Below, piece by piece: positions 27,682 to 45,811 of a stretch of 64,000 nucleotides of DNA (positions are counted from its first letter, which is position 1; each line of letters starts with the position of its first letter). The stretch is taken from positions 1,970 to 65,969 of the forward strand of contig DFLE01000001.1 in the NCBI GenBank assembly GCA_002373375.1, read 5' to 3'. The translations under genes were made by a program, and so were the position numbers. Origin of the DNA: Prevotellaceae bacterium UBA3627. Lineage in GTDB: Bacteria > Bacteroidota > Bacteroidia > Bacteroidales > Bacteroidaceae. The notes under the pieces were generated by a model, which saw only the letters and a list, made by a program, of their open reading frames with translations, made no database searches and was not told the DNA's origin.

Positions 27682-27689
27682 TAATTTTG
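27682..27689 (+). promoter_or_regulatory. -7 element (TAATTTTG) for the peptide C - fimbrillin operon
   Basis: TAnnTTTG match about 75 nt upstream of 27763. Confidence 0.55.
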
Positions 27690-27762: not shown

Positions 27763-28008
27763 ATGAACAGAAATATATTCATATCAAAGAAGATGTATGT
27801 CGCTCCCCTCATTTCCTTCGAGGAAGTGGAGGAGGAACAGGAATTGCTTGCTGGCTCAACAACTGGTGGTGGTGCGCCGTGGGAGACAGGTGAGCCTGGT
27901 GTTAAGCCGTATGACGACCCTTTCAATGGCAATGGGGCTAAAAAATCTGGTGGTATGTTTGAAGATACTGGCGAGGGAGATTTCGTGTTTGAGATAGATG
28001 ACAGGTAA
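27763..28008 (+). CDS. Small YxxP-leader acidic peptide C (function unknown)
   Basis: KKMYVAPLISFEEVEEEQELLAGS followed by a G/P/D-rich tail and AKKSGGMFEDTGE. Confidence 0.75.
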   Translation: MNRNIFISKKMYVAPLISFEEVEEEQELLAGSTTGGGAPWETGEPGVKPYDDPFNGNGAKKSGGMFEDTGEGDFVFEIDDR

Positions 28009-28033
28009 TGTTACAATGTTTCTTAAAGTGGGG

Positions 28034-29170: not shown

Positions 29171-29183
29171 AAGTTATTAAGAG

Positions 29184-30434
29184 ATGAAGAATATATTTAC
29201 ATATCTGACAGTGGCGGCGATGACGCTCTTTGTGTCGTGTTCTTCCGACAGCATCATTGCTGACGGAGAGAATGTAATACTTGAGGAGGGAACCATGGCT
29301 TCCAGGCCGGCTTTGGAGAGTGGCGACGAGACGCGTGGTACTCTGTATCTTGAGAATGCCATGATGCGGTTTGATTGGAATGAGGGTGACAAGATTGCTG
29401 TCTATCCTCTGTATAAGCCGGGTACAGGTCAGGATATTGAGGCTATAGACGAGTCGCATGTGCAGGTTCTTACTTATCTCCAGAATGTTGATGGCGGCAG
29501 TGGCCTGTCCAAAGCCGAGTTCAGTCCTAACGGCAAGAAATATGTATTGAACGTGAAGAATACCAAGGACTTCGTGGCGTGGGCACCATATCTTTCTGGC
29601 GAGGACTTTAAGGATCGGGAAATCCCTGAGTTCGGCTATACTGAAATGCCAGTCACATATGAGAACCAGATACAGTCTGCTAATGTAGAGATGGGACATT
29701 ATGATCCGACAAAATCTGATGAGATGGCTCTTTTGCTGGCCTCAGAGAAAAGGGCCTCCGCTCACCTCGGCAACTATGACTACTTGTATGCACAGGCGGA
29801 GCAAGGTAATACAGGTTACACCTGCTTCGACTTCAGCCACGTGCAGGCCACCGTGCGTTTTTATATGCAGATACCAGAGTCTGAGAATCCTCAGGTTTTC
29901 GACTCTCTCGTAATATATCATAAGTTTGAGGCTCCTGACCGTGTGGGGGTTAATTTCGTGGAGAAAGGCAAGTTCAGTCTGGAAACACAGAAAATGACTG
30001 TTTATAAGAAGACAAATAAGCTGAAACTGAAGCTCGGCACAGAGACAGAGGGCATGGACCTTATAGACCATGAAGTAGGCAGTGAGACAGAAGGTAAGTA
30101 TAAATCCATATATAAGCGTGGTGACAGGTATCTCCTCATAGCATATATGCAGATGTATCCTGTGAATATTACTTTGGATGCTATGCAGCTGCCAACCTTG
30201 TACCTCTACGGACATACAGGCACTGAGGCTGGAGGCAACCTAAAACACACCTACTATAAGGCGCGTCTGACGAAAAAGAATATAGAGGCTGGCAAGTGGT
30301 ATCAGTGGGCAACCACGTTGGACGAGGAACAGCCTATACAGTTTGAGGTGGTCAACGTGGAGGAATGGAAGGAGGATGATACTTTCTACAATACCGTTGA
30401 CAAAACTGAGGGTCAGGGTACGCAGCACTGGTAA
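29184..30434 (+). CDS. Fimbrillin-family (type V pilin-like) lipoprotein
   Basis: Lipobox LFVS-C; ETRGT processing-like site; WNEGDKIAVY; MPVTYENQ...HLGNYDYL...FDFSHV; EAGKWY...VNVEEW. Confidence 0.75.
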   Translation: MKNIFTYLTVAAMTLFVSCSSDSIIADGENVILEEGTMASRPALESGDETRGTLYLENAMMRFDWNEGDKIAVYPLYKPGTGQDIEAIDESHVQVLTYLQNVDGGSGLSKAEFSPNGKKYVLNVKNTKDFVAWAPYLSGEDFKDREIPEFGYTEMPVTYENQIQSANVEMGHYDPTKSDEMALLLASEKRASAHLGNYDYLYAQAEQGNTGYTCFDFSHVQATVRFYMQIPESENPQVFDSLVIYHKFEAPDRVGVNFVEKGKFSLETQKMTVYKKTNKLKLKLGTETEGMDLIDHEVGSETEGKYKSIYKRGDRYLLIAYMQMYPVNITLDAMQLPTLYLYGHTGTEAGGNLKHTYYKARLTKKNIEAGKWYQWATTLDEEQPIQFEVVNVEEWKEDDTFYNTVDKTEGQGTQHW

Positions 30435-30498
30435 ATCTTGGCGGATAAGTCTTGATTGATCTTGCGGATAGATTTTGATTGATCTTGCGGACAAGTAT
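30435..30498. repeat. Three ~23 bp tandem repeats (ATCTTGCGGATA...TTGATTG)
   Basis: Read directly between the two lipoprotein genes. Confidence 0.7.
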
Positions 30499-30569
30499 TA
30501 ACTGTTTTATCAGATAAGTATACTTTCTTGAAGTATTAATTATTAATTTTTTAATTATTAATTAACTAG

Positions 30570-31772
30570 ATGATAAGGAATATAAACATATATATAGCCG
30601 TTGTGGCTGCCCTGCTGCTGGTCGGCTGTGGCAGCGAGGAACTGCCCCTGACACACGCGGATGGTTATGGTGAGGTGTCTTTCAATGTCGGCGGTGAGGG
30701 CACACGTGCCAATGAAAGGACGTATGTGGGATATGACTATGACCGCGATCCGCATTTCATGGGTGTGTTCGGATGGTACAACCTGCTTCAGGCCACATCG
30801 CTCAGCGACAACAAGATGTTTGATAACCTTGAGCTGACAGCCACACCTGACAAGGAAACCCAGCTGATAGCATGGGATTACGAGCCTAAGCGTTACTGGT
30901 CTGAGTTTGCTGACTTCGTGAGGTTCGACAACTTCGCCTATATGCCTTATAACCCCGGGGCTACTCTGACGAGAGATGCTAATGTATATACTCTCTCAAT
31001 GCCTGTTAATTTCGGTCCGGGTACCCCATTCTCTGTTACGGAGACGGCTCTTATGTGTAACCTGCCAGACTATAAGGCTGACCCTGATGGCGTGATTATG
31101 TTTAAGATGGATCAGGCTCTTACGGGATACAAGCTTGTGTTCCAGTTAGGTGACAAGATGAGTGACATACGTTACTTCGTCATAAAGAGTGTTAAGGTCT
31201 ATGGTCAGAACTTCGTCAGCAGCGGTACGGTGTCTCGTCAGTACACCCTTGACCCAGAAAACAGCACTACTCCTTGGACATCCGGTGATTTCGTCTGGGA
31301 TCTAAATGATGATGAAGAAGACAGGTTTGACGTGCTGCCCGCTAATGCCGTGCCTATACCATATAATGACAACAGTGCCGATGCTCCTGTGGGAGAGGAT
31401 TGGACAGAATACTACAGTCAGTTGACGGAAAAGCTGACCGAGGAGAAGGATACGACCTATGGAGTGCTTCGTGTCAACAAGGTAGCTGTGCCCTGGGGAA
31501 AGCCTATATACCTGTTCCCGGCGAGAGACTTCAATCCGGTCTTTGAGGTGACATACGATGCCGTCGTCGTCAATGAGGACGGTGATGACGTGGTGACTCG
31601 CAAGAACGTGGTAAGCACAATAGAGTTCAGCGAGGACTACTTCGAGAAGTTGAAGACTGCCGGAGCCACAGAGATGGGCAAGACACGCACAATACACGTG
31701 AAGATAGTGCCTGACCACCTCTATGTACTCGCCGATGCCGACCAGACTTTCGGCTATATCCCTGTACCGTAA
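30570..31772 (+). CDS. Fimbrillin-family lipoprotein
   Basis: Lipobox LLVG-C; VSFNV...GTRA; MGVFG; WDYEPKRYW; FAYMPY; C-terminal IVPDHLYVLADAD. Confidence 0.75.
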   Translation: MIRNINIYIAVVAALLLVGCGSEELPLTHADGYGEVSFNVGGEGTRANERTYVGYDYDRDPHFMGVFGWYNLLQATSLSDNKMFDNLELTATPDKETQLIAWDYEPKRYWSEFADFVRFDNFAYMPYNPGATLTRDANVYTLSMPVNFGPGTPFSVTETALMCNLPDYKADPDGVIMFKMDQALTGYKLVFQLGDKMSDIRYFVIKSVKVYGQNFVSSGTVSRQYTLDPENSTTPWTSGDFVWDLNDDEEDRFDVLPANAVPIPYNDNSADAPVGEDWTEYYSQLTEKLTEEKDTTYGVLRVNKVAVPWGKPIYLFPARDFNPVFEVTYDAVVVNEDGDDVVTRKNVVSTIEFSEDYFEKLKTAGATEMGKTRTIHVKIVPDHLYVLADADQTFGYIPVP

Positions 31773-31792
31773 TATAGTAAACTGTAAAGCCG

Positions 31793-31928
31793 GGAAAGAA
31801 ACAAATTACAATAATTATCTATAATTACGGTAGTTCGTTTCAAGTACATAAAAAAGAGATGAGGAGAGATGACATGGAAGACAATTAATGGATAATTAAT
31901 GACAATTCGTGTCAAGAGATGAAGAAAA
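31793..31928 (+). repeat. ~135 bp TA-cassette leader repeat, copy 1
   Basis: Near-identical to 32574-32707 and 33406-33542. Confidence 0.95.
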
Positions 31929-31938
31929 GGAGGTGAGT

Positions 31939-32232
31939 ATGGAAAGAAACATAACATTGAGCCCGGAGGCTCTGCCTTACTGGAACTACATAAAGAGTGC
32001 AAGTCCAAAAGTGAAGGAAGAATTGGCATACTTCCTCGTTCATGTCAAAGCTCCCGAAAAAGAGACGGAAAAGGACGAGAATGAGGAAGATGAGATAGAA
32101 GACCGCCTTGTGTTTCCAAAAACACGTGAGGACGAGTTGGAAATCCTACGCAGGGCATTTCGTGATGCTAAACTGCTTAAGGAAGGAAAGTTGAAGACGC
32201 GTGATTTTTGGGAGGTGATTAATGAGCTGTAA
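31939..32232 (+). CDS. Putative antitoxin 1 (partner of the RelE-like toxin)
   Basis: ATG after AGGAGGTGA; acidic middle; C-terminal KLLKEGKLKTRDFWEVINEL; overlaps the toxin start by 11 nt. Confidence 0.75.
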   Translation: MERNITLSPEALPYWNYIKSASPKVKEELAYFLVHVKAPEKETEKDENEEDEIEDRLVFPKTREDELEILRRAFRDAKLLKEGKLKTRDFWEVINEL

Positions 32233-32575
32233 GATAAGAACGTCAAATAAGTTTGACAAGGATTTGAAGAAACTGTCAAAGCGTTATAGCTCATTTCGAT
32301 TAGATATAATGGAGTTGGCAACTCAGTTGGCTGAGAATCCTTTTATGGGTACAGACCTTGGAGGGGGAGCTCGCAAAGTGAGGATGCGAATACGCTCAAA
32401 AGGAAAAGGAAAGAGTGGGGGAGCAAGAGTGATAACATATACTGCAGATGTAGTGGTGCAGACGCTTGAAGGCGAGATCGTACTGCTGACAATTTATGAT
32501 AAAGCAGATGTGGAGTCAATATCTGATGTAGAGATACGAAGGCTAATAGAAGATATAACAAAAGCAGATAGATAA
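32222..32575 (+). CDS. RelE/HigB-family toxin
   Basis: FDKDLKKLSKRY...GTDLGGGARKVRM...KGKGKSGGARVIT...LLTIYDK motif. Confidence 0.88.
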   Translation: MSCKIRTSNKFDKDLKKLSKRYSSFRLDIMELATQLAENPFMGTDLGGGARKVRMRIRSKGKGKSGGARVITYTADVVVQTLEGEIVLLTIYDKADVESISDVEIRRLIEDITKADR

Positions 32576-32707
32576 GAAACAAATTATAATAATTATCTAT
32601 AATTACGGTAGTTCGTTTCAAGTACATAATAAAGAGATGAGGAGAGATGACATGGAAGACAATTAATGGATAATTAATGACAATTCGTGTCAAGAGAATA
32701 AAGAAAA
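32574..32707 (+). repeat. ~135 bp TA-cassette leader repeat, copy 2
   Basis: Begins inside the RelE stop codon. Confidence 0.95.
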
Positions 32708-32717
32708 GGAGGTGAGT

Positions 32718-32990
32718 ATGGAAAGAAACATAACATTGAGTCCGGAGGCTCTGCCTTACTGGAATATGATAAAGGACGCAAGTCCAAAGGTAATAGATGA
32801 ACTGGGATATTATATAAATACAATTCATCTATACCGGAAGATAAAGAATAGACCCAAAAGGGATTTCGATGAATTCTGTGGTATATGGGCAAGTGACTCT
32901 GAGGTGTCGGCAGATGAGTTGACAAAAGAGGTTAGAGATAGCGGCAAAGGCAAAACAACAGAAGAACTTCTGAAAATATGGGAGAGATGA
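32718..32990 (+). CDS. Putative antitoxin 2 (VapB-like partner of the PIN toxin)
   Basis: Same N-terminus as antitoxin 1 (MERNITLSPEALPYWN); C-terminal FCGIWASDSEVSADELTKEVRDS. Confidence 0.75.
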   Translation: MERNITLSPEALPYWNMIKDASPKVIDELGYYINTIHLYRKIKNRPKRDFDEFCGIWASDSEVSADELTKEVRDSGKGKTTEELLKIWER

Positions 32991-32994
32991 TGCG

Positions 32995-33405
32995 ATGAGT
33001 AAGAAGTATATGTTGGATAGTAATATCTGTATTGCTCTATTTCGTGGTGACATGAATGTCAGAGACAAGTTGAATGCAATGGGGAAAGAAAATTGTTTCA
33101 TTCTTGATTTGACAAAATATGAAATACTCGTAGGCGCGGAAATAAGACACTTAAAGCATAACGATAACGAGATGCAGAAAGTGAAGGCGTTCTTAGAAAT
33201 GATAAATATAATGCCATCGGCTCCCTATTATGAGTATGCGGCAAAAGAAAATGCTTATTTACATTCCATAGGGAAAAAAAATGGTGATTTCATTGACTTG
33301 GTCATCGGTTGTGCTTCAGTAGTAGACAATATGATAATGGTTACGAATAATGTGAAGCACTTCGGAAATATAAGAAATATTCGCATTGAGAGTTGGATGG
33401 ATTAA
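32995..33405 (+). CDS. VapC-like PIN domain toxin
   Basis: YMLDSNICI, YEILVG, DLVIG and MVTNNVKHF..I.NIRIESW motifs. Confidence 0.9.
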   Translation: MSKKYMLDSNICIALFRGDMNVRDKLNAMGKENCFILDLTKYEILVGAEIRHLKHNDNEMQKVKAFLEMINIMPSAPYYEYAAKENAYLHSIGKKNGDFIDLVIGCASVVDNMIMVTNNVKHFGNIRNIRIESWMD

Positions 33406-33542
33406 GGAAAGAAACAAATTATAATAATTATCTATAATTACGGTAGTTCGTTTCAAGTACATAATAAAGAGATGAGGAGAGATGACATGGAAGACAATTA
33501 ATGGATAATTAATGATAATTCGTGTCAAGAGAATAAAGAAAA
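33406..33542 (+). repeat. ~135 bp TA-cassette leader repeat, copy 3
   Basis: Begins on the base after the VapC stop codon. Confidence 0.95.
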
Positions 33543-33581
33543 TCAACGATAGTTTGTTTCAAAAGAGAGGAGAAATGAGAT

Positions 33582-33836
33582 ATGAATACTGTAGCGATGA
33601 ATAACCTCTGGACTTACCTGCAAGGACTTAGCTTGACAGCCAAAAACAAGAAATGGTTGTCAGAACGTCTCTTAGAACCAGTTCGCGCTTCGGTGAAGGT
33701 GGCAGATGCAGACGATTCTGTTATGACAGAAGACGAGGTATGGGAAGGGATGAAGACAGGCTTTCAAGAGATGAAGTTGATAAAGAACGGAAAACTTAAA
33801 GCACGTGATGCGTGGGAGTTTATGAATGACCTGTAA
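33582..33836 (+). CDS. Putative orphan antitoxin 3 (RelE-type C-terminus)
   Basis: C-terminal KLIKNGKLKARDAWEFMNDL resembles antitoxin 1; different N-terminus (MNNLWTYLQGLSLT). Confidence 0.7.
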   Translation: MNTVAMNNLWTYLQGLSLTAKNKKWLSERLLEPVRASVKVADADDSVMTEDEVWEGMKTGFQEMKLIKNGKLKARDAWEFMNDL

Positions 33837-33879
33837 AATGGTTAATGTGGTTTTGAAGAATAATATAATAAACGAATAA
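33826..33879 (+). pseudogene. Vestigial RelE start (MTCK...) overlapping the antitoxin 3 stop
   Basis: ATGACCTGTAAA versus ATGAGCTGTAAG (MSCK) of the intact RelE, with the same 11 nt overlap; reads on only 17 codons into unrelated sequence. Confidence 0.55.
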
Positions 33880-33886
33880 TAGAGAG

Positions 33887-34102
33887 ATGGTATCGACACA
33901 GTTAAACCCCGCACAGTTAAATGTGCTTAGCCTTATGTCGTATATCGACACGGAGCAAGAGCAGCAGGAGTTGCAGGAGATACTGCTTAACTTCTACCGT
34001 GAGAAAACGGACAAACTGCTGTCACAGTTCCAGAAGGAAAATAACATAACTCAGCAAACATTAGACGATTGGGCTGGTCAACATGAAAGGACAGAATATT
34101 AA
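33887..34102 (+). CDS. Putative antitoxin 4
   Basis: LNPAQLNVL...W..QHERTEY pattern typical of small Bacteroidetes genes preceding PIN toxins; TAATG overlap with the next gene. Confidence 0.75.
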   Translation: MVSTQLNPAQLNVLSLMSYIDTEQEQQELQEILLNFYREKTDKLLSQFQKENNITQQTLDDWAGQHERTEY

Positions 34103-34524
34103 TGAAAATAGTCTTAGACACCAATTGCTTAGTGAATGTGATAATGCCTAACTCTTATAATAATGATGTATGGAGGGCATTCCGTTTAGGGAAATATTCA
34201 ATTGCTGTATCAAATGAAATACTCTTTGAGTATCATGAGATATTGACGAAGCGTTATAACGGCCTTATTGCAAATACTGTAATTAAGGAGTTGCTAGAGT
34301 CACCTAATGTGGAACGTGTGGTTCCTGCTTATCGATTTAATCTGATAACGGCAGACAAAGATGATAACAAATTTGTTGACTGTGCTATTACAGCAGGTGC
34401 TACATACATAGTAAGCAATGACAGACACTTTGAGGAACTTGACAATTACGATTTTCCTAAAGTGAATCTCTGTAAGTTGGAAGAGTTCTTGACAATGATA
34501 AGGATTAATAGACTGGAAATTTAG
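34102..34524 (+). CDS. PIN domain putative toxin (TIGR00305-like)
   Basis: MKIVLDTNCLV, VSNEILFEYHEIL, DKDDNKFVDCA and IVSNDRHF motifs. Confidence 0.9.
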   Translation: MKIVLDTNCLVNVIMPNSYNNDVWRAFRLGKYSIAVSNEILFEYHEILTKRYNGLIANTVIKELLESPNVERVVPAYRFNLITADKDDNKFVDCAITAGATYIVSNDRHFEELDNYDFPKVNLCKLEEFLTMIRINRLEI

Positions 34525-34679
34525 TATAAGGGTACATCTGTATGTTAATGTAATTATAAGAGAGCAGACAAGAGAAGCAAGAGATAGAGAATGGGATGAA
34601 AGAGAGTGTATGAGAGAGATAAGTGAAGACTGGCTATTATTAGGATATTAACTAACACTATATAAATTTTATTTGGAAT

Positions 34680-37600
34680 ATGAAATTTATAAAATGTAAC
34701 GCTATGACAAGAATAATGTCAAACAACAAGGAAACGATGAGCCTGACCAAGGACAACAGAAAACGCTCCGCTAATATGGCGCGTTTTATGGTTATGGTAT
34801 TCCTCTCTCTTCTCATGACTGCCATGGGAAGATTGGATGTATTTGCAGATGATTTAAATAAGGATATAAACATCGAAGGGTATGGTGTGAAGTATCTTTA
34901 TGAATTTACGACTAATACACCTCAAGTGTTGCCTACGTCTGGAGACCTTCGTTATAGGGCTGGTTTCGGCTTGCATAATTATGGAGGTGGAGGTAGATCA
35001 GCGAATGTTTCCGTAAAAGTCTCAAAGGATGATATCCTTATTTTTCAGGAATATACCACTACTGCTGGTAAGACTGGACCATTCTTGTACAATGTAACAC
35101 ATGCAACGAAAGATTCAGAGTTATCCGATAAGCTTGGGTACCAAGTATGGAAAGTTAACGAAGATGCTACTTCAATAAGTTTGTCTCTATATAGATATGG
35201 AGGTATTAGTCGAATGTTGCGTTTGCGTAAATCGGTTAATATTAATTTTGAAAAAGGAGCAGATCAGACACTAGTAGGAGATGTGCCAAGCAGCATTGTC
35301 CTTACAAAAAGCGATTCTGTTAAGATACCTGTAAATGCTACATTATATAAGACAGGGTACACGTTGACAGGTTGGACTGATGGTGTTAATAATTATAAGG
35401 TTAATGAAATATCATCTATTATAGATGATGTTACGCTTACGCCAGTCTTACGAGCAAATACTGTTTCTCAGACAGAATCTTTAAAAATTCTTGAGTCAAC
35501 ATTTGAAAATGTAAAGTGGACTGAGAATGATGCTTCTGCGGCTTATGTAAAGTCTTTAGATTTTAACGGAGAGGCTCAAGATGTTGCGTTAATTGTAAAG
35601 AATAGGACTATAACAATAGATGCGGTAAAGGGAATGAAAATAACTTTCCCAGAAGATATGGTAAGTTATTTCTCTTGTAGTGCGACTGACATTACAAAAT
35701 CCGCTAATATTTGGACATACACAGCAGGTAGCAGCCCTATAACTATTTCCTATTCCGGGAATAATGCGTTATTAGCATCAATTAAAGTCGCTTATCCGAT
35801 GACTGAAAGTCCTGTTATATATTCAAATATACCAGATACTTGTAATGTTAGATTAGATGATGAATTGAAGCTTAGTATAGGAGTATATAATATTGACACA
35901 GAAAGGGGGGACACCTATCAATGGTATAAAAACTCAACGGCTTCGGTAGACGATGCTTCCATAATATCTGGTGCGACAAGTAATATTTATGTCGTTCCTA
36001 CGTCTATTGAGAATAAAGGAACCAATTTCTATTTTTGTAAGGCGACAAACAGTAAAGGTTCTGTAGTTTCAAAAATATCATGTGTGACAGTTAATCCTGT
36101 TCCTGAAATCCATACTGATATAGAGAAATTGTATGCTATAAATATTGGAGATACAAAGAGTATTTCTATCGGTGTGTATAATATGCAGCTCTCAGGCAGT
36201 ACTTATCAGTGGTATAGGAATACAATTGAAAGTACAGAAAATGCAGAACCTGTAACAGGAGCTACAAGCAATACATATACTTTGCCTTCTTCTGAGGAGA
36301 ATAAAGGTACTGTATATTATTATTGTATAGCAAGAAATAGTGAAGGTGCTGATACTTCTACTATTACCCGTGTCTATGTAGCGGACTATGTCATGTTTGA
36401 CTTCAAGAACGGATACAACAGCTACAGCGAGAATGAGCGTACGCTCGGAACAAAAGACGGGTATATCGGATTCTCTACTCTCAAGGATCTTGCCCTGCGT
36501 ACTGTAGAAGGCTTGGAGCCTATGTATGAGGTGCCTGCAAAGGCTGTGCTTTATCCTTACGAACTCTCCGGATATTTCGGTATCGCTGAATATACGGAAG
36601 GCGCAATACAAATAGTACCGGGTACTGGTCTGCAGAACAATACGAATGAGCGACCGCTCATTATTACCAACGTAAAGCCTGGTGAGGTGGTAAAGATTAT
36701 AGGTCCTACGCTGAAGACCATCACCGCTCAGAGCAACAGCAACGGTGGGCGTGCCGAGTATGACATCTATGCCAATGCCGACAGTACGGTGTATAATCTG
36801 CTCGTGAAGACGGCTGGTAACCTCACGTTTACTCTGGCCAGGAGTGGTGGTACGACAATTCAGTATATCTACGTGGCAAACAGGCATCGTCCTACTGTCA
36901 CCACAAGTCTTGACGGTGGGACCCGCGAGATAGCCCGTAACTCTACCTCTACCCTGTCAATCGCGGCTACTGCCGACGACAGCAATCCTCTGACCTACCA
37001 GTGGTATCGTGCCGACAACGACACGATACGTGGCGGAAGAGAGATAAAGGGTGCCACGGGCAGTGAGTACACCACGGTGGCTGGCGAGTCTTATTACTAT
37101 TACTGCGTGGCGTTCAACAGTGTCACGGGTACGGCCGATGTGTCAAAGAAGACTACGCACGTGGAGACCACTCCAGAGTTTAGATACAAGAATAATGACG
37201 CGGCTGCGACAGGTGAACTGCCGGCAGACCAGGTTATACCCGTCGGCGGCACTCATACCGTGGAGAAACGTAACTATCTGATGTTTAAGGACGGATACAC
37301 TCTCAAGGGATGGACTGACAGTACCGTGGTTGCGGATACCCTTGTACTCACCCACCAGTTTGGCAAGGGGTACACCACTGTCAATGACCGTGTGCTCTAT
37401 CCTTATTTCACGAAAAACAACCGACTGCTTGACGACATCGTTACTAATGTCATAGTAAGGTGGCCGTTCGCTACTGACAATGATGCCCCCACCGTCACAT
37501 GGGATGATGAGAAGGAGCATATCTTGCCAAGTCAGGCAGTTGTTACCGACGAGAATCAGGATCTGGCAGCAAGAATCAAGAGTACGGGTTTCACCACCGG

Positions 37601-40600
37601 AACTGACGGTGCGACAGTGGCCGCAGGGACTACGATAAGGGTGCCGGTATTCTACGGCACGATAGTCCGTCTCTATACCGTGGGTGACGTTGTCCCCTCG
37701 GTCAGCGTGATTGACTCTGAGCTTGCTAATCCTATGACCATGAGTGCGGATGGTAATGTGCTCTCATACAAGCATTACGGTGACAAGGATACCATAACGC
37801 TGACTCTCGGCGCCGGTACCTATGAGCAGCTCTATGTGAACTATGCTCCGTCAGGAATGCCTAAGTTCGCCAATGACCTGCAGAGCGACTACTATTGTGA
37901 GACTGGCAAGAGTGTCACCATGTCGGTGGTGGCCTCTGACGGTGTGACCTACCAGTGGTACAAGAACACTAAGTTGTCTAATACAGGTGGAACGCTCATA
38001 GTTGGTGCTACTTCTGCGTCATATACAGCTACCCGTAATACTGACGGCTCGGATTATTACTATGTCAGAATACATAATAACTATGGCGACACTTATTCTT
38101 CATGTACTACCGTAACTTATTACTCTTACGTCACTCACGACTTCGTGACGTGGGATGCGGCCGATGCTAATGCGTATAAGGTAGGCAGTAACGATGACGG
38201 CATGTATTACGGCATAGCGCAGGCTGACGCTATTAAGGCATATAAGTATATCTATCCTTACGGAATGGCGGGATATTACTCAGTACAGAATGGTGACTTG
38301 CGAATACGTACTACAGAGGGATTGCGTGAGGGTCTGAAGAACTTCGGTTCTGGTCCTCGTTACCTGCATATCAATAACATGAAGAAGGGCCAGCATATAT
38401 ATATCACAGGTAATGCGCTGAATGCCCATTTCTATACTACAGAAGGGTTACGAGATAACGGCGGCGGCTTTAGAGATGCCGGTAAGTTCACTGTCACTTT
38501 CTCTGAGGGCAACACCAAGGCAGACCTCGAGATGACCCAGGATGGTCATATCATGATATATGTGGCGCGAGCAGCAGCTTTGCGAACCATTACCCTTCCT
38601 ACGAAATACACTCCTGTCATAACCAAAGACCTGGAGGAGTCGTATGTGGTGGACAAGGACTCAAAGGTCACCCTTAAGGTTGAGGCAAGACCAGCCGCTG
38701 AGATAGAGGGACAGAACCTTGTGTATGAGTGGTACAAGAACACTTCTAACTCTAACAAGGGTGGAACACTCATAGCAGGTGCGGACAGCTCTTCTTTGGT
38801 AATCGACAAGGTTACGGAGAACGCTTTCTATTACTGTCTGGTGAAGAACTCGGTGACAGAGACCGTCGCTGCCTCAAGCCCGGCAGCCGTAGGCTACTAT
38901 GTGACAGTGACATTTAAGAATAATGACGCCGCGGCATACGGTGAGGCTCCAAAGAGTGCCAAGGTTCAGGGTGGTGTGCCTTACACCATACCTGTCAACC
39001 AGACCCTGATAAAGGACGGCTATACACTTACCGCGTGGAAGGTCGGCGATTCCAAAGTCGCAACAGGAGGTGAGTTCACACCTCAGAATGATGTGACACT
39101 GACACCTGTCTTCACCCAGAATGCGGACAACGCCTCATTGGCGAAGCGTCCTGATCCGATGAGCATCCACTGGGTGTTCAGTACGGCTAACGGCTCAGCC
39201 GAGTATAATGACAGTGTGTCAGCCAACGTCAATCAGGTGTCTGTCAACAACAGCACCATCGATGTGGGCATCAAGATGACCAAGGGCGACAACCAGAAAA
39301 ACTCTGTCATGGCTTCTACCGGCTGGCTGAATGCTAATAATGGCGACTTCGTGCTTCCTGTAGTCAAGGGAGCAAAGGTAACGCTCTCTGTGTATAATAC
39401 TACAGGTATCACCATAAACGGCGAGAGCATAGCATACAGCGCAGACAAGGGACAGACCGGAGCTGTGAAGTATGAATACACCTACATGGGTAAAGACAAG
39501 GAAATCACCCTTAATGTGGGAGAGAACTACATAAAGGATATCACTATTGACTATCCGTTCCCCGAGGTGCTTGAGGCTGACAAGGAAAAGTATGAGCTTG
39601 CCATCAAGGATGCCAAGGCTGCTAGCAAGTCAGTTGTCGTGAAAGTAACAGGACGCAACCTCGTAGGCGGCAGTTCGGTGACGCTTGTCAAGGACGCCAA
39701 GGGCGACAATGTCACTGTAGTGCCGGAGGAGTTTAGCGTAGCCGATGACGGCACCGTGTCACAGGAGATACTCGTCACCTACGCCGGAAGTGCCGTTCAT
39801 GCGGCGGACTCCACTGTGCTCAAGTTCCGCTACAGTGATGACGTGGAGGCAGAATTCAAGGTGATGTTCAGCCGTGAGAAAGCATATACCGGCACATCTA
39901 AGCTCACAGCCATATCTAAGAAGACAGTGTGGAACTGGGCTGGTTCCACCTCTAACATCACGCCGGAGCAGGACGCATATTTCGTGTTCCGTGATATCAC
40001 GCTGGACGATGGTGTGTCATGGCCTGAGACCATCACACCGGCCAACCTTGCTGGTGTGGGTACATACTTCGCTCATAACAGCGTGAAGTGCTTTGAGGGT
40101 AAGGAATTGTACTTCGAGACTACTCGAAAGGGTACGGTAGAGGTGGACTTCTCATCTACCGCCTCTAACAGCATCACGCTTGCCGTGAATGACAAGGATA
40201 CTGAGTACACGAGCGCAAGCACCTCTGTCGTAACAACAAAGCAGAAGATTGCTGTGGATTCAGGTCTGGTGAAGCTGTGGGCTCACACCACAGGTATTGC
40301 CACGGGCGAGCAGAACGTGCGTATATATAAGGTGACTTTCACGCCAGACGCGGAGAAGCCGACAATCGTGCTTGACGCAGAGACTTCCTCGTTTACCATA
40401 ACGGGATCAGCCGATGTCAACCTGCGTGATGATGATCCTGACAAGGAGACGATATACTATACCATCGACGGCTCTGAGCCTTCACTTTCAAGCAACAAGT
40501 ATGGCGGCACTGCTGTCAAGCTCTACACCAACCGTACCATCAAGGCTATAGCGGTTGCCACGAACAAGAACAACTCTGAGGTTGACAGCCTGACGACGGA

Positions 40601-43600
40601 TATGAAGACATATAAGCTCACAGTGGGAGTTTATCCTTCAAACTCTGGTCGCGTTGTCCTTTCTCCTACAGTACCGAACAATGAATATACCCTTAACTCA
40701 GAGGTCACCCTGAAAGGTGTGGGTATGACGGGTTATGGCGTGCGTGGCTGGGCCAAGAGTCGTACGGATATAGCCGATGGTAAATTTGAGAATGAGAACA
40801 AGTCTTCTTATACTGTAACCATAGACTCCGTTTCCAATGAGTTTTGGGCAGTGTTCAAGAAAGGAGTGGAGGTCACTGTCATATATGACGTGGCTAATGC
40901 CAAGTTCCTTGACAAGAGTGATAATGTGGTGTCTGGTTTTGAAATCGAAAACTACAGAGCTTATTTCAATATGCAACACATGAAATCGCCTGTTGTCTCT
41001 GGTTCCATAACAGCTCCTGCCACATATCCTTTATATACGGGCTTCTTCCATAATGGCTGTCCTTACTCATTGATTTACTGGGAGGATACAGACGGCGAGA
41101 AATATGAACTGGGAACCAATACGGTTGTCGCAGAGTCAAATAAGACCGTTACCTTGATTCCGGTATATAAGCAGAACGTATGGTCAACATTCCTTGAGAC
41201 ACGTAAGTCCAAGTTTGATGTCACATGGCATTTCAGCCGCTCTGAGTTCGCACACCCGGCAACTGTAGCGTCAGGCAATACTTTCTGGCTCGCCACGAAT
41301 ACAGAACACTTGGATTATTTTGACCAGTTGGGTAATCCTGTCAGTGATCAGACCGTGGACATCGGTATAGAGATAGACACCTATGACTCCTCTGACTCTA
41401 TAGCCTTCACAAATGAAGAGATAGATACATGGGCATCAATCAAGCCGGGAACAAAGATACACATTCCTTCTGCTTACGGTGCGAAGCTTACCCTTGCCAC
41501 GTATGGTACTATCAACGGCGGTGGCGGCGGTACTACTATCAATGGTAAGAGTCCTGACAATGTATATGATGAGAAGATTCCGACAGATGAGTTGGGAGCA
41601 TACCTCTATACATGGACTATACAAAACGATGAAGAGTCGGCGGAACTCTATATTGGTAATGACTTCTCTTATTACCGTTACATTAAGGGTGAGTATATGG
41701 AGGCTACAGAGTCTTACCTTAAGTACTCTTCCAACAATGATGAGATGGGTACCGTGACCGCTGCTCTCACCACTGATGATGACAAGTACACATCAAAAGA
41801 GTCTGAGTTGGGTCACTCATATCCTAAGTCGGCTAATGTCACCGTGACAGCTGAGCGCAAGGAGTTCTATGAACTGAAATACTGGCTTACCTCTGAGGGA
41901 ACGAAGATTTATCCTGACGGCAGATACCAGACTAAGAGTCAGCAGGCTGATAGTGTGTATAGCACTGTGTCAAACGGCACCAACATTGATGGTGTGATGT
42001 TCACAGGCGTAACCGGTGAGAATGAGATGAAGTACAGCATCAGCTTTAACCTTGACCGTTTCTATGACGTGCAAGCGGTATTCGGCGATCGCAACTCTTA
42101 CTATGTCAACTTCTCAGTCGGTGAAGGCAAGGGACTCGCCCTGCCGTTAGCCCATGTCGAGGAGGGTAAGAAATTCGACATGCCTGCTGGAAACTACAAT
42201 CTCTATAAGGACGGCTATACATTGAAGTATTATGTAGAGCAAGGCGTTGATAACAGTCCGCATTATGAGTTTGGCAAGTCATACGATATAGACCATAATA
42301 TGCGTCTCATACCTGTGTTTAAGGCTAACAACAAGTCGTTAATTGACATTACCGATGTTGAGGGCAGAACAGTCACATGGGATGTCAGCTATATGCAGTT
42401 CGACTTTACCGGTGCTAATGGTCACATGATTGCCCAGTTGCCGGTGGATGATAATGACACTATAGATGTACGTTGCTACTTCTCTGTGAATGACAACAAT
42501 GTTTCAGAGAAGATTAACGAGGGGTCGCTTGAGGTCAGCGCTGGTGCGGTGTTAGATATTATCTCTACATCTAACTGTGTGTTCAACGTCAAGACTGCTA
42601 CAGGTACAGAGTTTAAGGCTGGTGACGTGAAGATAGGCACTGATGACAAGCAGGCCGGTAATGACGTCAGTGTGGCAATTACCACGGCAAGCTCCGCCCA
42701 GCAGATAAAATTTGTCAAAGCTGCGAAGGTGAAGAGTATCAGTGTTACCTATAAGAGTCTCAATAAGCCAAGGTCTCTCAAGTCTGTCACCATAGGCAGT
42801 TCTCAGTTAAGTACTGAGCAACTGGCTACGCTGAACTCGACAACGAACTATACTCATACGTGCTCAGCGTCGGTAGTCTATGATGCTGACAATACGATGC
42901 CTGCTGTGACCGCGGTGCCTATGGATGCCGATGGCGCGACAGTAGATATAACACAGGCCACCATAGAAAACCAGGTTGCGACGATATTGATGAAAGTAAA
43001 TGGTATTACTATTGAGACATATAATATCTATTTCAACCTCGCTGATATGGTGTCACCTACATTCAGCAATGTCAAGGTCAATACCTCTGAGGTAAGTGTG
43101 AGCGGGGGAAGCAGCGTCAGCCTTGACGAAACAGAGCGTCAGTCAACAAGCGGAACGGTCAGCCTGACCTTCGATCATCCGATGAAGTCTGCGACTGTAA
43201 ATGCTCTCGGGCAGACTATGAACGCAGTGGCTACAGGTAATGTGTTACAGCTGACATATTGGAATCTTAATCCAAACACCTCTTATACATTGAATATACC
43301 GGAAAACAGTCTGGAGGATGTATATGGAGAGAAGTATGGCTCAGCTATAAGTATCACGTTCAAGACAGCGACAGTTTCAGCGGTAAGCTCAACCAAGTTC
43401 AATTATGTCGTGACCCACAAGATTCTGTGGGACGGCGTAACCCAGACGGCTAAGGATACCATTCAGTTCGTCGCTGACGACGTGATAGCCAACCTGAAGC
43501 GTCAGGACATCCAGTATGGTACTCTTGAGGAGGGCATAACGCTTGCCAACAAGGCGGGTGGCACGGAGCGTTTCCGCATCTTTGTGCCAAACGGAGAGTA

Positions 43601-45659
43601 CAATATGAAGGGTACGGAGCCGTTGATTGCCGCAGACTTGGCTGGTACGGTATATGGTAAGGATGCCAGTGGCAACTTCAGTAAGACTGTCGCCATCAAC
43701 ATCACCGATTATCCGCAGAACATGGTGGGCAACTCATATTACTACTATAACGGACGTTCGTTCCTCTCACGTAGTAATGTCTCTATTATCGGACAGAGTC
43801 AGGACAGCACTGTGATATACAGTGACCCGCGCGTAGCAGGAACCTACATGTCTTCCACACTGCGCATACAGTGGGATGTGGCAAACACCTATATGCAGGA
43901 TCTCACCCTTGAGAACCGTTTCTGTAACTCTCAGGGTAATAGTCCGGAAGCAGGTATAGACAAGAATGGAGGTGGTGCGTCAGCACTTTATGACAACGGT
44001 TATCATACCGTGGGCAAGAACGTGACGCTCAAGGCTCATGAGGGAACGTATGCCTCTCTCGTATGGGACGGAGGTACTCCACAGAATCCTAAGAAAGTAC
44101 ACGACACTGACAACTATTTCGAGGATTGTGAGTTGTGGGGCAGCATGTATCCGCTCTTCGAGCAGGGACAGGCATTCTGGAACCATCCTACTATAATACT
44201 GCGTGGCTCATCAAATACTTCATATCTCTCCTTGCTTGAGTCCGACAAGACTCAGAAGTGGGGCTATGTACTCAAGGGCGGTGTTGTCAAGGCGGAGAAT
44301 GATGCCGTGTATGCAAAGCAGAATAACAATTTCGCTCTTGGTTCGGGTATCCGTAACACCCCGGCTCAGACACTCATTGGCATGAAGTTTGATGTGGCAC
44401 CTCTCGCATCAGGTTATCTTAACTATCAGGGTTCGGGCAATGTAATGCGCTTCCATGAGTATGGTTCAAAGACATCTACGGATCTGCCTATGGATTTGTC
44501 AAGCCGTTCACTCGCTGTATTTGCTCCGGGAGCAGGTTCTGACGAGTGTGTCCTGACAGAGGAACAGGCTGCGGAGTACACATTGGCCAACGTGCTTGGT
44601 GGCAGCACAGCCTATGATCCTACCATCTACACCAAGCAGGTGGATCTCACAGGTGTGTTATTGTCACAGTCTGACGAGGGTATCACATGGACGGGCAGCA
44701 ACGAAGCTCTCTGTTACTTTATCTTCCGTCAAAATGAGAAGACAAAGGAGTTTGAGTTCTATGACATCACTACAAGAACCATATATCAGCCTGACACTGC
44801 ACAGACCGGTCGCGTATTCTATGTGCGTGCCGCCAACGAGCGCGGCGGACTGGGCAAACCGTCAAAGACGATTGTTTACCAGAACCTTGGTGAGTTTATC
44901 TTAAAGGTGTCACACCTCACTAATGACGTAGGTTTCTGTGAGGACAGCAATAAGAAGGAAGAGTGGACAGGATGGAGTACTATCTGTCTGCCGCACAATG
45001 CCAAGGTGCCTTCGACCAGTTACAATGAAGACGGTTCAGACGGAACAGGTAATATCACAGTCTATGGTGCCCAAGGAGCCCTCGGTGGTGAGAAGAATGT
45101 CATTGTCTTGAAGAAAGTTTCTTATATCAAGGCGAATATGGGTTACATCGTCTATGCAACCACTGGTGAGTCTTCTATGAACTACTGCTTCAAGTACACA
45201 TGGGATTCCAGTGTCGCATCATCTACTACTTCTGACAGTTACCTTGACGGTAACCCGTCAGACAAGGATGTGGCAGTAGGTACGGTCAACTGTTACACTA
45301 TGGCATACAAGAAGACCATCAACCCTGATTGCGTCGGCTTCTATAAGTTCATCGGCGACATGATACCAGCTCACAAGGCGTATCTGACCGTTGAGACGCT
45401 GGCAGATAAGGGATTCAAGCTCGACACTACAGGCGCAAATTCAAAGGAGCTCAACTTCCGCTTCCTCTTTGACGAGGATGATGAGAACTACTATGAGTAC
45501 GAGGAAGATGCCGACGGCATTGACGATGTCAGAGTAACCCGTGATGGTGATGAGGAGACCGTCTTTGACCTCAGCGGCAAGCGACTCGACAAGTCACAGC
45601 TCCGCAAGGGTATGGTATATGTCATCGGCGGTAAGAAAGTACTGTGGAACGGAGAATAA
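34680..45659 (+). CDS. Giant (3659 aa) secreted multidomain protein with Ig-like/B-repeat/FN3-associated modules, a degenerate CE8 (pectin methylesterase-like) domain and T9SS-type C-terminus
   Basis: YQWYKN Ig repeats, KDGYTL.GW B-repeats, IYYTIDGSEP; CE8-like FVPNGEY...NVSIIGQSQDST...MQDLTLENR but with catalytic motifs altered; C-terminal FDLSGKRL...VIGGKKV. The true start may be a downstream Met. Confidence 0.85.
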   Translation: MKFIKCNAMTRIMSNNKETMSLTKDNRKRSANMARFMVMVFLSLLMTAMGRLDVFADDLNKDINIEGYGVKYLYEFTTNTPQVLPTSGDLRYRAGFGLHNYGGGGRSANVSVKVSKDDILIFQEYTTTAGKTGPFLYNVTHATKDSELSDKLGYQVWKVNEDATSISLSLYRYGGISRMLRLRKSVNINFEKGADQTLVGDVPSSIVLTKSDSVKIPVNATLYKTGYTLTGWTDGVNNYKVNEISSIIDDVTLTPVLRANTVSQTESLKILESTFENVKWTENDASAAYVKSLDFNGEAQDVALIVKNRTITIDAVKGMKITFPEDMVSYFSCSATDITKSANIWTYTAGSSPITISYSGNNALLASIKVAYPMTESPVIYSNIPDTCNVRLDDELKLSIGVYNIDTERGDTYQWYKNSTASVDDASIISGATSNIYVVPTSIENKGTNFYFCKATNSKGSVVSKISCVTVNPVPEIHTDIEKLYAINIGDTKSISIGVYNMQLSGSTYQWYRNTIESTENAEPVTGATSNTYTLPSSEENKGTVYYYCIARNSEGADTSTITRVYVADYVMFDFKNGYNSYSENERTLGTKDGYIGFSTLKDLALRTVEGLEPMYEVPAKAVLYPYELSGYFGIAEYTEGAIQIVPGTGLQNNTNERPLIITNVKPGEVVKIIGPTLKTITAQSNSNGGRAEYDIYANADSTVYNLLVKTAGNLTFTLARSGGTTIQYIYVANRHRPTVTTSLDGGTREIARNSTSTLSIAATADDSNPLTYQWYRADNDTIRGGREIKGATGSEYTTVAGESYYYYCVAFNSVTGTADVSKKTTHVETTPEFRYKNNDAAATGELPADQVIPVGGTHTVEKRNYLMFKDGYTLKGWTDSTVVADTLVLTHQFGKGYTTVNDRVLYPYFTKNNRLLDDIVTNVIVRWPFATDNDAPTVTWDDEKEHILPSQAVVTDENQDLAARIKSTGFTTGTDGATVAAGTTIRVPVFYGTIVRLYTVGDVVPSVSVIDSELANPMTMSADGNVLSYKHYGDKDTITLTLGAGTYEQLYVNYAPSGMPKFANDLQSDYYCETGKSVTMSVVASDGVTYQWYKNTKLSNTGGTLIVGATSASYTATRNTDGSDYYYVRIHNNYGDTYSSCTTVTYYSYVTHDFVTWDAADANAYKVGSNDDGMYYGIAQADAIKAYKYIYPYGMAGYYSVQNGDLRIRTTEGLREGLKNFGSGPRYLHINNMKKGQHIYITGNALNAHFYTTEGLRDNGGGFRDAGKFTVTFSEGNTKADLEMTQDGHIMIYVARAAALRTITLPTKYTPVITKDLEESYVVDKDSKVTLKVEARPAAEIEGQNLVYEWYKNTSNSNKGGTLIAGADSSSLVIDKVTENAFYYCLVKNSVTETVAASSPAAVGYYVTVTFKNNDAAAYGEAPKSAKVQGGVPYTIPVNQTLIKDGYTLTAWKVGDSKVATGGEFTPQNDVTLTPVFTQNADNASLAKRPDPMSIHWVFSTANGSAEYNDSVSANVNQVSVNNSTIDVGIKMTKGDNQKNSVMASTGWLNANNGDFVLPVVKGAKVTLSVYNTTGITINGESIAYSADKGQTGAVKYEYTYMGKDKEITLNVGENYIKDITIDYPFPEVLEADKEKYELAIKDAKAASKSVVVKVTGRNLVGGSSVTLVKDAKGDNVTVVPEEFSVADDGTVSQEILVTYAGSAVHAADSTVLKFRYSDDVEAEFKVMFSREKAYTGTSKLTAISKKTVWNWAGSTSNITPEQDAYFVFRDITLDDGVSWPETITPANLAGVGTYFAHNSVKCFEGKELYFETTRKGTVEVDFSSTASNSITLAVNDKDTEYTSASTSVVTTKQKIAVDSGLVKLWAHTTGIATGEQNVRIYKVTFTPDAEKPTIVLDAETSSFTITGSADVNLRDDDPDKETIYYTIDGSEPSLSSNKYGGTAVKLYTNRTIKAIAVATNKNNSEVDSLTTDMKTYKLTVGVYPSNSGRVVLSPTVPNNEYTLNSEVTLKGVGMTGYGVRGWAKSRTDIADGKFENENKSSYTVTIDSVSNEFWAVFKKGVEVTVIYDVANAKFLDKSDNVVSGFEIENYRAYFNMQHMKSPVVSGSITAPATYPLYTGFFHNGCPYSLIYWEDTDGEKYELGTNTVVAESNKTVTLIPVYKQNVWSTFLETRKSKFDVTWHFSRSEFAHPATVASGNTFWLATNTEHLDYFDQLGNPVSDQTVDIGIEIDTYDSSDSIAFTNEEIDTWASIKPGTKIHIPSAYGAKLTLATYGTINGGGGGTTINGKSPDNVYDEKIPTDELGAYLYTWTIQNDEESAELYIGNDFSYYRYIKGEYMEATESYLKYSSNNDEMGTVTAALTTDDDKYTSKESELGHSYPKSANVTVTAERKEFYELKYWLTSEGTKIYPDGRYQTKSQQADSVYSTVSNGTNIDGVMFTGVTGENEMKYSISFNLDRFYDVQAVFGDRNSYYVNFSVGEGKGLALPLAHVEEGKKFDMPAGNYNLYKDGYTLKYYVEQGVDNSPHYEFGKSYDIDHNMRLIPVFKANNKSLIDITDVEGRTVTWDVSYMQFDFTGANGHMIAQLPVDDNDTIDVRCYFSVNDNNVSEKINEGSLEVSAGAVLDIISTSNCVFNVKTATGTEFKAGDVKIGTDDKQAGNDVSVAITTASSAQQIKFVKAAKVKSISVTYKSLNKPRSLKSVTIGSSQLSTEQLATLNSTTNYTHTCSASVVYDADNTMPAVTAVPMDADGATVDITQATIENQVATILMKVNGITIETYNIYFNLADMVSPTFSNVKVNTSEVSVSGGSSVSLDETERQSTSGTVSLTFDHPMKSATVNALGQTMNAVATGNVLQLTYWNLNPNTSYTLNIPENSLEDVYGEKYGSAISITFKTATVSAVSSTKFNYVVTHKILWDGVTQTAKDTIQFVADDVIANLKRQDIQYGTLEEGITLANKAGGTERFRIFVPNGEYNMKGTEPLIAADLAGTVYGKDASGNFSKTVAINITDYPQNMVGNSYYYYNGRSFLSRSNVSIIGQSQDSTVIYSDPRVAGTYMSSTLRIQWDVANTYMQDLTLENRFCNSQGNSPEAGIDKNGGGASALYDNGYHTVGKNVTLKAHEGTYASLVWDGGTPQNPKKVHDTDNYFEDCELWGSMYPLFEQGQAFWNHPTIILRGSSNTSYLSLLESDKTQKWGYVLKGGVVKAENDAVYAKQNNNFALGSGIRNTPAQTLIGMKFDVAPLASGYLNYQGSGNVMRFHEYGSKTSTDLPMDLSSRSLAVFAPGAGSDECVLTEEQAAEYTLANVLGGSTAYDPTIYTKQVDLTGVLLSQSDEGITWTGSNEALCYFIFRQNEKTKEFEFYDITTRTIYQPDTAQTGRVFYVRAANERGGLGKPSKTIVYQNLGEFILKVSHLTNDVGFCEDSNKKEEWTGWSTICLPHNAKVPSTSYNEDGSDGTGNITVYGAQGALGGEKNVIVLKKVSYIKANMGYIVYATTGESSMNYCFKYTWDSSVASSTTSDSYLDGNPSDKDVAVGTVNCYTMAYKKTINPDCVGFYKFIGDMIPAHKAYLTVETLADKGFKLDTTGANSKELNFRFLFDEDDENYYEYEEDADGIDDVRVTRDGDEETVFDLSGKRLDKSQLRKGMVYVIGGKKVLWNGE

Positions 45660-45681: not shown

Positions 45682-45716
45682 AGGCTATCAAGCGTGATGC
45701 TTGGTAGCCTTTTTTT
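45682..45716 (+). terminator. Rho-independent terminator after the 3659 aa gene
   Basis: AGGCTATCAAGC-gtgat-GCTTGGTAGCCT followed by a T run. Confidence 0.85.
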
Positions 45717-45811
45717 CGTTATATCGTTATATCGTTATATCGTCATCTCGTTATTTCGTTATTTCGTCATATCGTCATGTCGATGTTTCGTTATTTCGTT
45801 ATTCCGTTTTA
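45716..45811. repeat. Octamer tandem repeat (TCGTTATW-like) x12
   Basis: Read directly. Confidence 0.85.

Follow-up and report, generated by a model that had tools for sequence, protein, structure and literature searches.

We analysed a 64,000-nt stretch of DNA from Prevotellaceae bacterium UBA3627 (assembly GCA_002373375.1, contig DFLE01000001.1, positions 1,970 to 65,969 of the forward strand; hereafter the window, with positions counted from its first letter), in which an array of small toxin-antitoxin (TA) genes, punctuated by a 134-nt leader repeat (REP), lies between a pilus cluster and the gene for a giant secreted protein. A preliminary description had likened the array to an integron and proposed a non-integron platform for the capture and shuffling of cassettes. 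The upstream flank holds two Mfa_like_1 (PF13149) fimbrillin genes (27998-29170 and 29184-30434), after which the features are as follows:

30570..31772, + strand: fimC, last gene of the pilus cluster (400 aa) and left border of the array; open reading frame (ORF) listing.
31796..31929, + strand: REP copy 1, 95-97% identical to copy 2; repeat search.
31939..32232, + strand: antitoxin A1 (97 aa), with N-terminus N1 (residues 1-29) and a predicted RelE-binding C-terminus; no family match, complex model.
32222..32575, + strand: RelE1 toxin (117 aa); PF06296, 4.2e-6.
32574..32707, + strand: REP copy 2, the reference copy, consisting of two diverged leader units of ~67 nt; repeat search and folding.
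32718..32990, + strand: antitoxin A2 (90 aa), with N-terminus N1 as in A1 and a different C-terminus; sequence comparison.
32995..33405, + strand: VapC toxin (136 aa), PIN domain; PF01850, 1.4e-5, and NCBIfam VapC models, 1.5e-20, below their cut-offs.
33409..33542, + strand: REP copy 3, 99% identical to copy 2.
33582..33836, + strand: antitoxin A3 (84 aa), with an N2-type N-terminus, an orphan in the window genome; sister-locus comparison.
33887..34102, + strand: small antitoxin-like gene of the PIN_3 pair (71 aa), with no leader repeat upstream; weak sub-threshold Pfam matches only.
34102..34524, + strand: PIN_3 toxin (140 aa); PF13470, 4.8e-18, and TIGR00305 above its cut-off.
34603..34679, + strand: proximal leader of the giant gene, conserved; it marks the right-hand end of the variable region, where other loci rejoin.
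34680..45659, + strand: giant secreted-protein gene (3659 aa); ORF listing.

All genes of the array lie on the + strand, and each paired toxin belongs to a family known from type II TA systems (RelE by PF06296; PIN by PF01850 and the VapC models; PIN_3 by PF13470 and TIGR00305) and has a small gene directly upstream that overlaps or abuts it: the A1 and RelE1 genes overlap by 11 nt, A2 and VapC are separated by 4 nt, and the small gene and PIN_3 overlap by 1 nt. A1/RelE1, A2/VapC and the small gene/PIN_3 look like genuine TA pairs. The genes for A1 and A2 and the small gene at 33887-34102 had no family match in Pfam, nor did A1 in NCBIfam. Much of what had been described of the layout was confirmed, namely three repeats of about 135 bp (the 134-nt copies lie within 3 nt of where they had been placed), a distinct cassette behind each of them (RelE, VapC, then an orphan antitoxin with a PIN_3 pair, as identified by family searches), the co-orientation of the genes, and the flanking fimbrillin operon and giant gene. 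As to the statement that copies 2 and 3 begin exactly at the preceding stop codon, copy 2 overlaps the stop codon of RelE1 and copy 3 starts 4 nt past that of VapC.

The three REP copies are direct repeats with 95-99% identity, and in copies 1 and 2 a further 112 nt (31919-32030 and 32698-32809), which reach into the antitoxin genes, are 86% identical. They carry the perfect inverted repeat TAATTAT-ct-ATAATTA and the ATTCGTG motif that had been pointed out earlier. REP is itself an internal tandem duplication of a unit of ~67 nt (score 28, compared with 16.6 +/- 2.7 for shuffled sequences, 1 of 500 of which reached it). The unit comprises three 11-nt motifs of the AATTMRTG type, then TCAAGAG and an A/G-rich region containing a GGAGG-like box, and last an ATG. 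At the end of the first unit stands a vestigial ATGGAAGACAATTAA, resembling the ATGGAAAGAAAC with which the N1-type antitoxin genes A1 and A2 start. A 44-nt hairpin is located at 32576-32619 in copy 2. Folded as DNA or as RNA, REP gives two separate local hairpins with unpaired ends (z-scores -2.0 and -2.6), and the consensus fold of 20 copies likewise has two local hairpins and unpaired ends. The 5' hairpin is preserved in 20/20 copies, with one two-sided change from A-U to U-G. At the 5' edge of REP, GATAGATAAGAAAC supplies the stop codon of both RelE1 and VapC', a VapC paralogue of sister loci, in two different frames.

Two further observations concern this leader. An SD-like (Shine-Dalgarno-like) AAGGAGGTGA box stands 5 nt upstream of the ATG in A1 and A2 (31927-31941 and 32706-32720) and is kept in a distant relative (L092). 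Bacteroidota are not generally known to rely on SD pairing, and a strong SD-like box before A1 and A2 is therefore unusual. The 3' half of the TA leader is also a member of a family of 11-nt AATTMRTG motifs. In this family, tandem AATTMRTG-N3 motifs followed by GTTMAAAA occur throughout the genome in intergenic regions of Prevotellaceae, with 22 clusters in the window's own genome (e.g., G000 C37:5033/5126 and C5:610/632); the clusters are often inverted pairs around a GC-rich hairpin and are also found in L009, L010, L021 and L022, which come from other genera.

Strain variation was assessed across 17 loci, comprising rumen or bovine metagenome contigs and one sister-species genome (G467), which were recovered by scanning metagenome contigs for the pattern and by looking up the antitoxin proteins, with features mapped on all 17; the source names of near-identical proteins read 'Prevotella sp.'. 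These loci have at least 14 architectures with 1-4 TA modules each, always in the order [ShosT-like phosphoribosyltransferase (PRTase)], A1/RelE1, A2/VapC, A2'/VapC', A3/RelE2, A3'/RelE3, small gene/PIN_3 and giant gene, and all differences among them are derivable by deletion from a longer array. Every module is preceded by the 3' half of the leader, which in L032, L034, L036, L038 and L064 lies upstream of the giant gene as well. Clean losses of whole modules have their junction within REP or the leader. For example, in L032 and L067, REP changes part-way from array-type to giant/A3'-type single-nucleotide polymorphisms (SNPs), and the crossover points within REP vary among loci. Internal deletions outside any repeat have produced chimeras, such as a 159-aa A2::A2' antitoxin (L064), RelE3(1-12) fused to the small antitoxin that belongs with PIN_3 (L035, L065, L069 and L071) and an A2'::VapC' tail fusion (P0006). 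Such deletions also left stumps of the PRTase gene, 31-36 nt long, in G467/L061, L036 and L038. In five sister loci (L034, L038, L039, L064 and L071) A3 is partnered by the RelE paralogue RelE2, so that A3 of the window had rightly been called an orphan antitoxin. The intact PIN_3 pair is kept only in the window among the loci compared, with fragments of its small gene in L035, L065, L069 and L071. Other loci rejoin the window at 34603, except for L035 (at 34552) and L036/L038 (at 34569-34580).

The sister-species genome G467 has a single module, and in the distant relative L092 an A1-like/RelE module without REP directly follows the pilin gene; TA occupancy of the site is therefore old, and REP came later. 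We found no empty site, and the N-terminus of the giant gene gave only distant, domain-level matches when searched against 400 genomes of the family. The PRTase-like gene is absent from the window. In L034 (7439-8242) it encodes 267 aa and comes after the last pilin gene, ahead of the first TA module; it also occurs in L039, L064, L065 and L069-L071, and it matches PADLOC ShosT at 3.2e-7 and Pfam Pribosyltran at 7.6e-6, with no ShosA-like partner visible.

The antitoxins themselves are modular. Five antitoxin variants have in common the invariant N-terminus N1 (MERNITLSPEALPYWN.IK.ASPKV), a 29-codon block that is paired with both RelE and VapC, and differ in their C-termini. Substitutions between the N1 coding copies are mostly synonymous. 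An exhaustive profile search found the N1 module in only 11 cluster representatives among 1.84 billion, and most of the top-scoring ones were antitoxin variants of this locus. A3 and A3' have a second N-terminus, N2, which is widespread in Prevotella and paired at other loci with RelE, ParE and PIN_3, while the C-terminus of A3 resembles that of A1. Across Prevotella, N2 (MN..SMNNLWTYLQGLSLTA.N..WLAERL; P0011-P0101) is near-invariant and fused to at least five unrelated C-termini; it has no relative in Pfam, NCBIfam or the PDB.

Modeling of the RelE1+A1 complex gave an interface score (ipSAE) of 0.65, compared with 0.00 for the best control; the mark set for ipSAE is reached by 58/80 solved complexes and 2/110 mismatched pairs, and our own small alignments were used. 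Separate runs had at least 62% of contacts in common and a partner pLDDT (model confidence) of at least 58. The predicted RelE1 interface comprises A1 residues 64-97, in the variable part, and leaves N1 outside. The model supports direct binding of RelE1 by A1 in silico, to which likeness to solved RelE-antitoxin complexes may contribute. In an AlphaFold2 (AF2) monomer model of A1 (pLDDT 63), a coil (residues 1-11) and helices 12-19 and 23-35 are joined by a disordered linker to a C-terminal pair of helices; Foldseek returned no PDB match for it at E <= 0.001, profile searches of the PDB with the antitoxins gave no meaningful match, and look-alikes in the ESM Atlas were Bacteroidota proteins without names. 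The predicted layout of N1 is compatible with a ribbon-helix-helix DNA binder. Because the fold model is weak and matches nothing in the PDB, we infer that fold, and with it DNA binding, from the helix layout alone. We also considered the 11-nt motif as an operator for the shared antitoxin domain; this idea was weakened, as the motif is a generic intergenic one and a stand-alone N2 module lacks it.

The distribution of identity along the modules points to recombination. Paralogous modules are 90-100% identical in nucleotide sequence over REP and ~30 codons, after which identity drops abruptly to 35-55%, and paralogous toxins are only 40-61% identical at the protein level (53-54% for RelE1 and its sister-strain paralogues RelE2 and RelE3). 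An old tandem triplication followed by divergence, which had been named as the scenario that would undo the cassette interpretation, is wrong as well, since it accounts neither for this abrupt drop to chance level ~30 codons into the antitoxins nor for content that varies among strains. Two internal REP copies of a single genome are distinguished by 0-5 sites (mean 2.0, 3 pairs); when REP copies behind the same toxin are compared across genomes, the mean is 10.8 sites (57 pairs). Distant N1 antitoxins (P0107, P0108 and P0110) show ordinary divergence in the same 29 residues. Because leader copies are homogenised within genomes, homologous recombination is indicated, and on sequence grounds such copies are a signature of concerted evolution, apparently by gene conversion or unequal exchange. 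Additionally, the point at which the repeat is joined is a different one in each of the three VapC paralogues, and hence these junctions are not site-specific.

We thus favor, with a probability of roughly 0.7, a reading of the array as a tandem family of modular TA operons in which homologous recombination or gene conversion at a common leader both maintains likeness and removes modules. The locus would be a strain-variable family of type II TA operons in a rumen Prevotella, placed in a transcribed spacer with a type V (Mfa-like) pilus cluster on one side and a giant surface-protein gene on the other. Each module begins with a leader unit of ~67 nt, usually doubled to 134 nt, to which one antitoxin class adds a 29-codon N-terminal module, and only the antitoxin C-terminus and the toxin vary between modules. 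These common 5' blocks may act as portable homology, at which RecA-type unequal crossing-over, gene conversion or slippage would homogenise copies and delete whole modules, and illegitimate deletions inside modules would yield chimeric, orphan or toxin-less remnants. The modules lack a canonical promoter and would probably be read from the pilus-operon promoter or from an unrecognised leader element. The data show the anatomy, the variation in the population, the fixed order, the homogenised leaders, the lack of integron features and the toxin families; the recombination pathway and any role of the array in defence or addiction are inferred.

Several points weigh against this reading. The within-genome homogeneity comes from three pairs only and could be inflated by assembly collapse. 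Most comparison loci are short-read metagenome contigs, in which mis-joining is possible at a 134-nt repeat, and contigs L031, L033, L040 and L041 end in REP. A regulatory function, and not recombination, could be what keeps the leader so highly conserved. Starting from a long ancestor, deletion accounts for loss but not for the first placement of RelE and PIN toxins behind a common leader and N-terminus. Finally, GATAGATAAGAAAC has the look of a defined joint, as two unrelated toxins take their stop codons from it in different frames.

One rival explanation is that the strain variation is an assembly artefact, with chimeric joins of co-existing strains across the repeat and a true array that is fixed. 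That many contigs break at REP fits this explanation, as does the length of the repeat, which is longer than or near common k-mer sizes (k127 and k141 in record names). However, identical architectures were obtained from different samples and studies (L036 = L037, L066 = L068, L090 = window), with the A2-VapC-REP-A3 arrangement of the window found again in the independent assembly L090 at 97.5%. The A2::A2' and RelE3::small antitoxin junctions and those of the PRTase stumps are unique, non-repeat sequences that mis-assembly could not produce, and a single module is also present in the sister-species genome. Given these unique junctions and the recurrence of architectures across samples, most variants are likely real, and we consider a purely artefactual origin very improbable.

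A site-specific mechanism was the second explanation to be weighed against homologous recombination: REP, its 44-nt hairpin or the 11-nt motifs would be the site of a dedicated recombinase encoded elsewhere, which would excise modules as circles and re-insert them, as in an integron. The co-oriented, repeat-punctuated and TA-rich layout agrees with this, as do leaders without a canonical promoter, module content that differs among strains, the border motif GATAGATAAGAAAC that ends RelE1 and VapC' in different frames, and the 5' hairpin with its two-sided change. The array nevertheless fails every integron feature tested. No attC core box, whether GTTRRRY (R') or RYYYAAC (R''), was found on either strand of the three REP copies and their flanks, and REP did not form an attC-type end-to-end hairpin in DNA, RNA or consensus folds, its ends being unpaired beside the two local hairpins. 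There is no IntI-type integrase beside the array; matches to PF00589 in the assembly, two tyrosine recombinases, are confined to contigs C7 and C52, with none on the array contig C57, and no serine recombinase (PF00239) was found in this assembly, which is 65% complete, so that a recombinase gene outside it is possible. Furthermore, module order was never permuted among the 17 collinear loci with their at least 14 architectures, the VapC paralogues join REP at three points and crossover points within REP differ among loci.

REP was also found at this locus only. The only copies in its own genome are the three in the array, and 400 sampled genomes of the family and 400 of the genus contained only short partial matches. 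An exact REP-pattern scan of genome contigs had no match, and neither did plasmids or phages (distant blastn with the whole array) or IMG/VR (pattern scan). Nor does REP qualify as a miniature inverted-repeat transposable element (MITE) or another mobile repeat, since its ends are not inverted repeats and its own-genome copies are only those of the array; Rfam gave no match at E <= 1 over 31000-35500. We regard a dedicated recombinase as quite unlikely, and the earlier integron-like reading as partly supported. Its non-integron character stands, given the lack of R boxes, of an end-to-end hairpin and of PF00589 matches on the contig, and so does strain variation with losses joined in REP or the leader; capture, shuffling and reordering of cassettes were not seen in 17 loci with a single order. 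The locus shows that a layout resembling an integron can arise without integron machinery, and it is a caution against annotating cassette arrays from layout alone.

With respect to expression, no TAnnTTTG, the -7 box of Bacteroidota, is present in REP or the leaders, in agreement with the preliminary description, and going upstream, the first one in an intergenic region, TAATTTTG, lies at 27682, before the pilus genes. An N2/PIN_3 module that stands alone at another locus has its own TAttTTTG box and no 11-mers. Since the leaders lack a -7 box that this module possesses, co-transcription of the array modules with the pilus/giant-gene unit is likely. Another arrangement was seen in Prevotella at an unrelated locus, on the downstream side of a SusC/SusD pair, where two 72-nt direct repeats that are 79% identical (L085:2970-3041 and 3912-3983) precede a HEPN/MNT module and an N2-antitoxin/RelE module and carry a canonical TTTG...TAccTTTG promoter.

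These data also bear on whether REP is kept mainly as a regulatory element needed by each module, for example an operator bound by the common antitoxin N-terminus, an unusual promoter or a leader for RNA processing or translation, with strain differences being incidental decay. The same leader core occurs upstream of the giant gene, the GGAGG box and the A-rich stretch are kept in the REP-less L092, and the L085 locus offers a parallel in which two unrelated TA modules each follow a promoter-bearing repeat. The mostly synonymous substitutions in N1 and its coil-helix-helix arrangement, compatible with a ribbon-helix-helix binder, would also fit such a role. On the other hand, selection on function does not account for paralogous copies in one genome being closer than orthologous copies from different genomes, or for the abrupt step in identity; the fold model is weak, with no PDB match, and the stand-alone N2-type module has an ordinary promoter and no 11-mers. 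As the principal account of REP a regulatory role appears unlikely, and it is compatible with, rather than exclusive of, recombination at the common leader.

The flanks of the array have diverged to very different extents. Between lineages, with the window compared with L034, L036, L064 and others, the three pilin genes (27998-31772) are 70-82% identical in nucleotide sequence, compared with 96-97% for the neighboring DUF1846 gene; fimC (30570..31772) is 70-72% identical to sister-strain alleles, and the first ~230 nt around the start of the giant gene are 85-87% identical. With the pilin genes on one side and the start of the giant gene on the other diverged in this way, the TA array sits between two hyper-variable surface-protein regions. 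We had considered transfer of cassettes between lineages, as the cassettes are 98-100% identical compared with 70-87% for these flanks. This candidate was dropped: the housekeeping flank (DUF1846 and rib genes) is 93-97% identical between lineages, and hyper-divergence is limited to the pilin genes and the giant gene's 5' end.

Several known systems share features with the array. In chromosomal integrons and clusters of attC sites without an integrase (CALINs), such as the superintegron of Vibrio cholerae with its near-identical VCR repeats and TA cassettes, small TA-rich modules are co-oriented and largely promoter-less, the ~130-nt repeat is near-identical within a genome, and content varies among strains. 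The array differs in having no IntI, no R'/R'' boxes and no end-to-end attC hairpin, and in that the repeat is placed on the 5' side of each module and extends into coding sequence, order is fixed, junctions are imprecise and there is one locus. Modular, or 'mix-and-match', type II antitoxins (Makarova et al., 2009, PMC2701414; Panacea and NetFlax, PMC8832971, PMC10440598) resemble the array in that one antitoxin domain is combined with unrelated toxins, here N1 with RelE and VapC, and N2 with RelE, ParE and PIN_3. In Panacea the shared domain neutralises the toxin, whereas in the array the shared N-terminus is outside the predicted toxin interface; moreover, in the array this N-terminus is shared together with its upstream DNA, and natural chimeric intermediates are visible.

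Orphan-cassette arrays of polymorphic toxin systems, including contact-dependent inhibition (CDI) and Rhs systems (Zhang et al., 2012, PMC3482391), likewise have a short conserved segment before each variable module that is usable as homology, and such arrays are strain-variable. In contrast to CDI and Rhs, the array encodes cytoplasmic TA pairs rather than secreted toxins with immunity proteins, and complete operons rather than 5'-truncated toxin tips. Tandem families under interlocus gene conversion resemble it in their homogenised 5' blocks beside diverged bodies and in copy number that changes through unequal crossing-over. Our full-text literature searches turned up no description of leader-repeat TA arrays, or of concerted evolution of a TA array with a common leader and antitoxin N-terminus.

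The locus provides a natural snapshot of how new TA pairs may arise and decay. RelE and PIN toxins draw on one leader and one antitoxin N-terminus, a wild population segregates for chimeric antitoxins and for remnants without a toxin, and concerted evolution seems to act on the common 5' block, with the toxin-binding parts diverging. The locus makes testable the insulation or cross-talk of neighboring TA paralogues, the question whether the orphan antitoxin covers RelE1, and the riding of TA modules on the transcription of large surface-protein operons. More speculatively, the array might be an instance of a general, integrase-independent accumulation of TA modules in the leaders of giant surface genes, with the leader copy serving both as expression signal and as portable recombination site and with cassettes collected in this way in several phyla, a generalization that we regard as doubtful.

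The leader itself is absent upstream of the two other giant genes of the window. Different tandem repeats precede these genes: a 79-nt unit repeated 8.1 times at 57408-58032 upstream of the third giant gene (start 58199), and an 8-nt TTTCGTTA unit repeated 11.9 times at 45714-45808 upstream of the second (start 46323).

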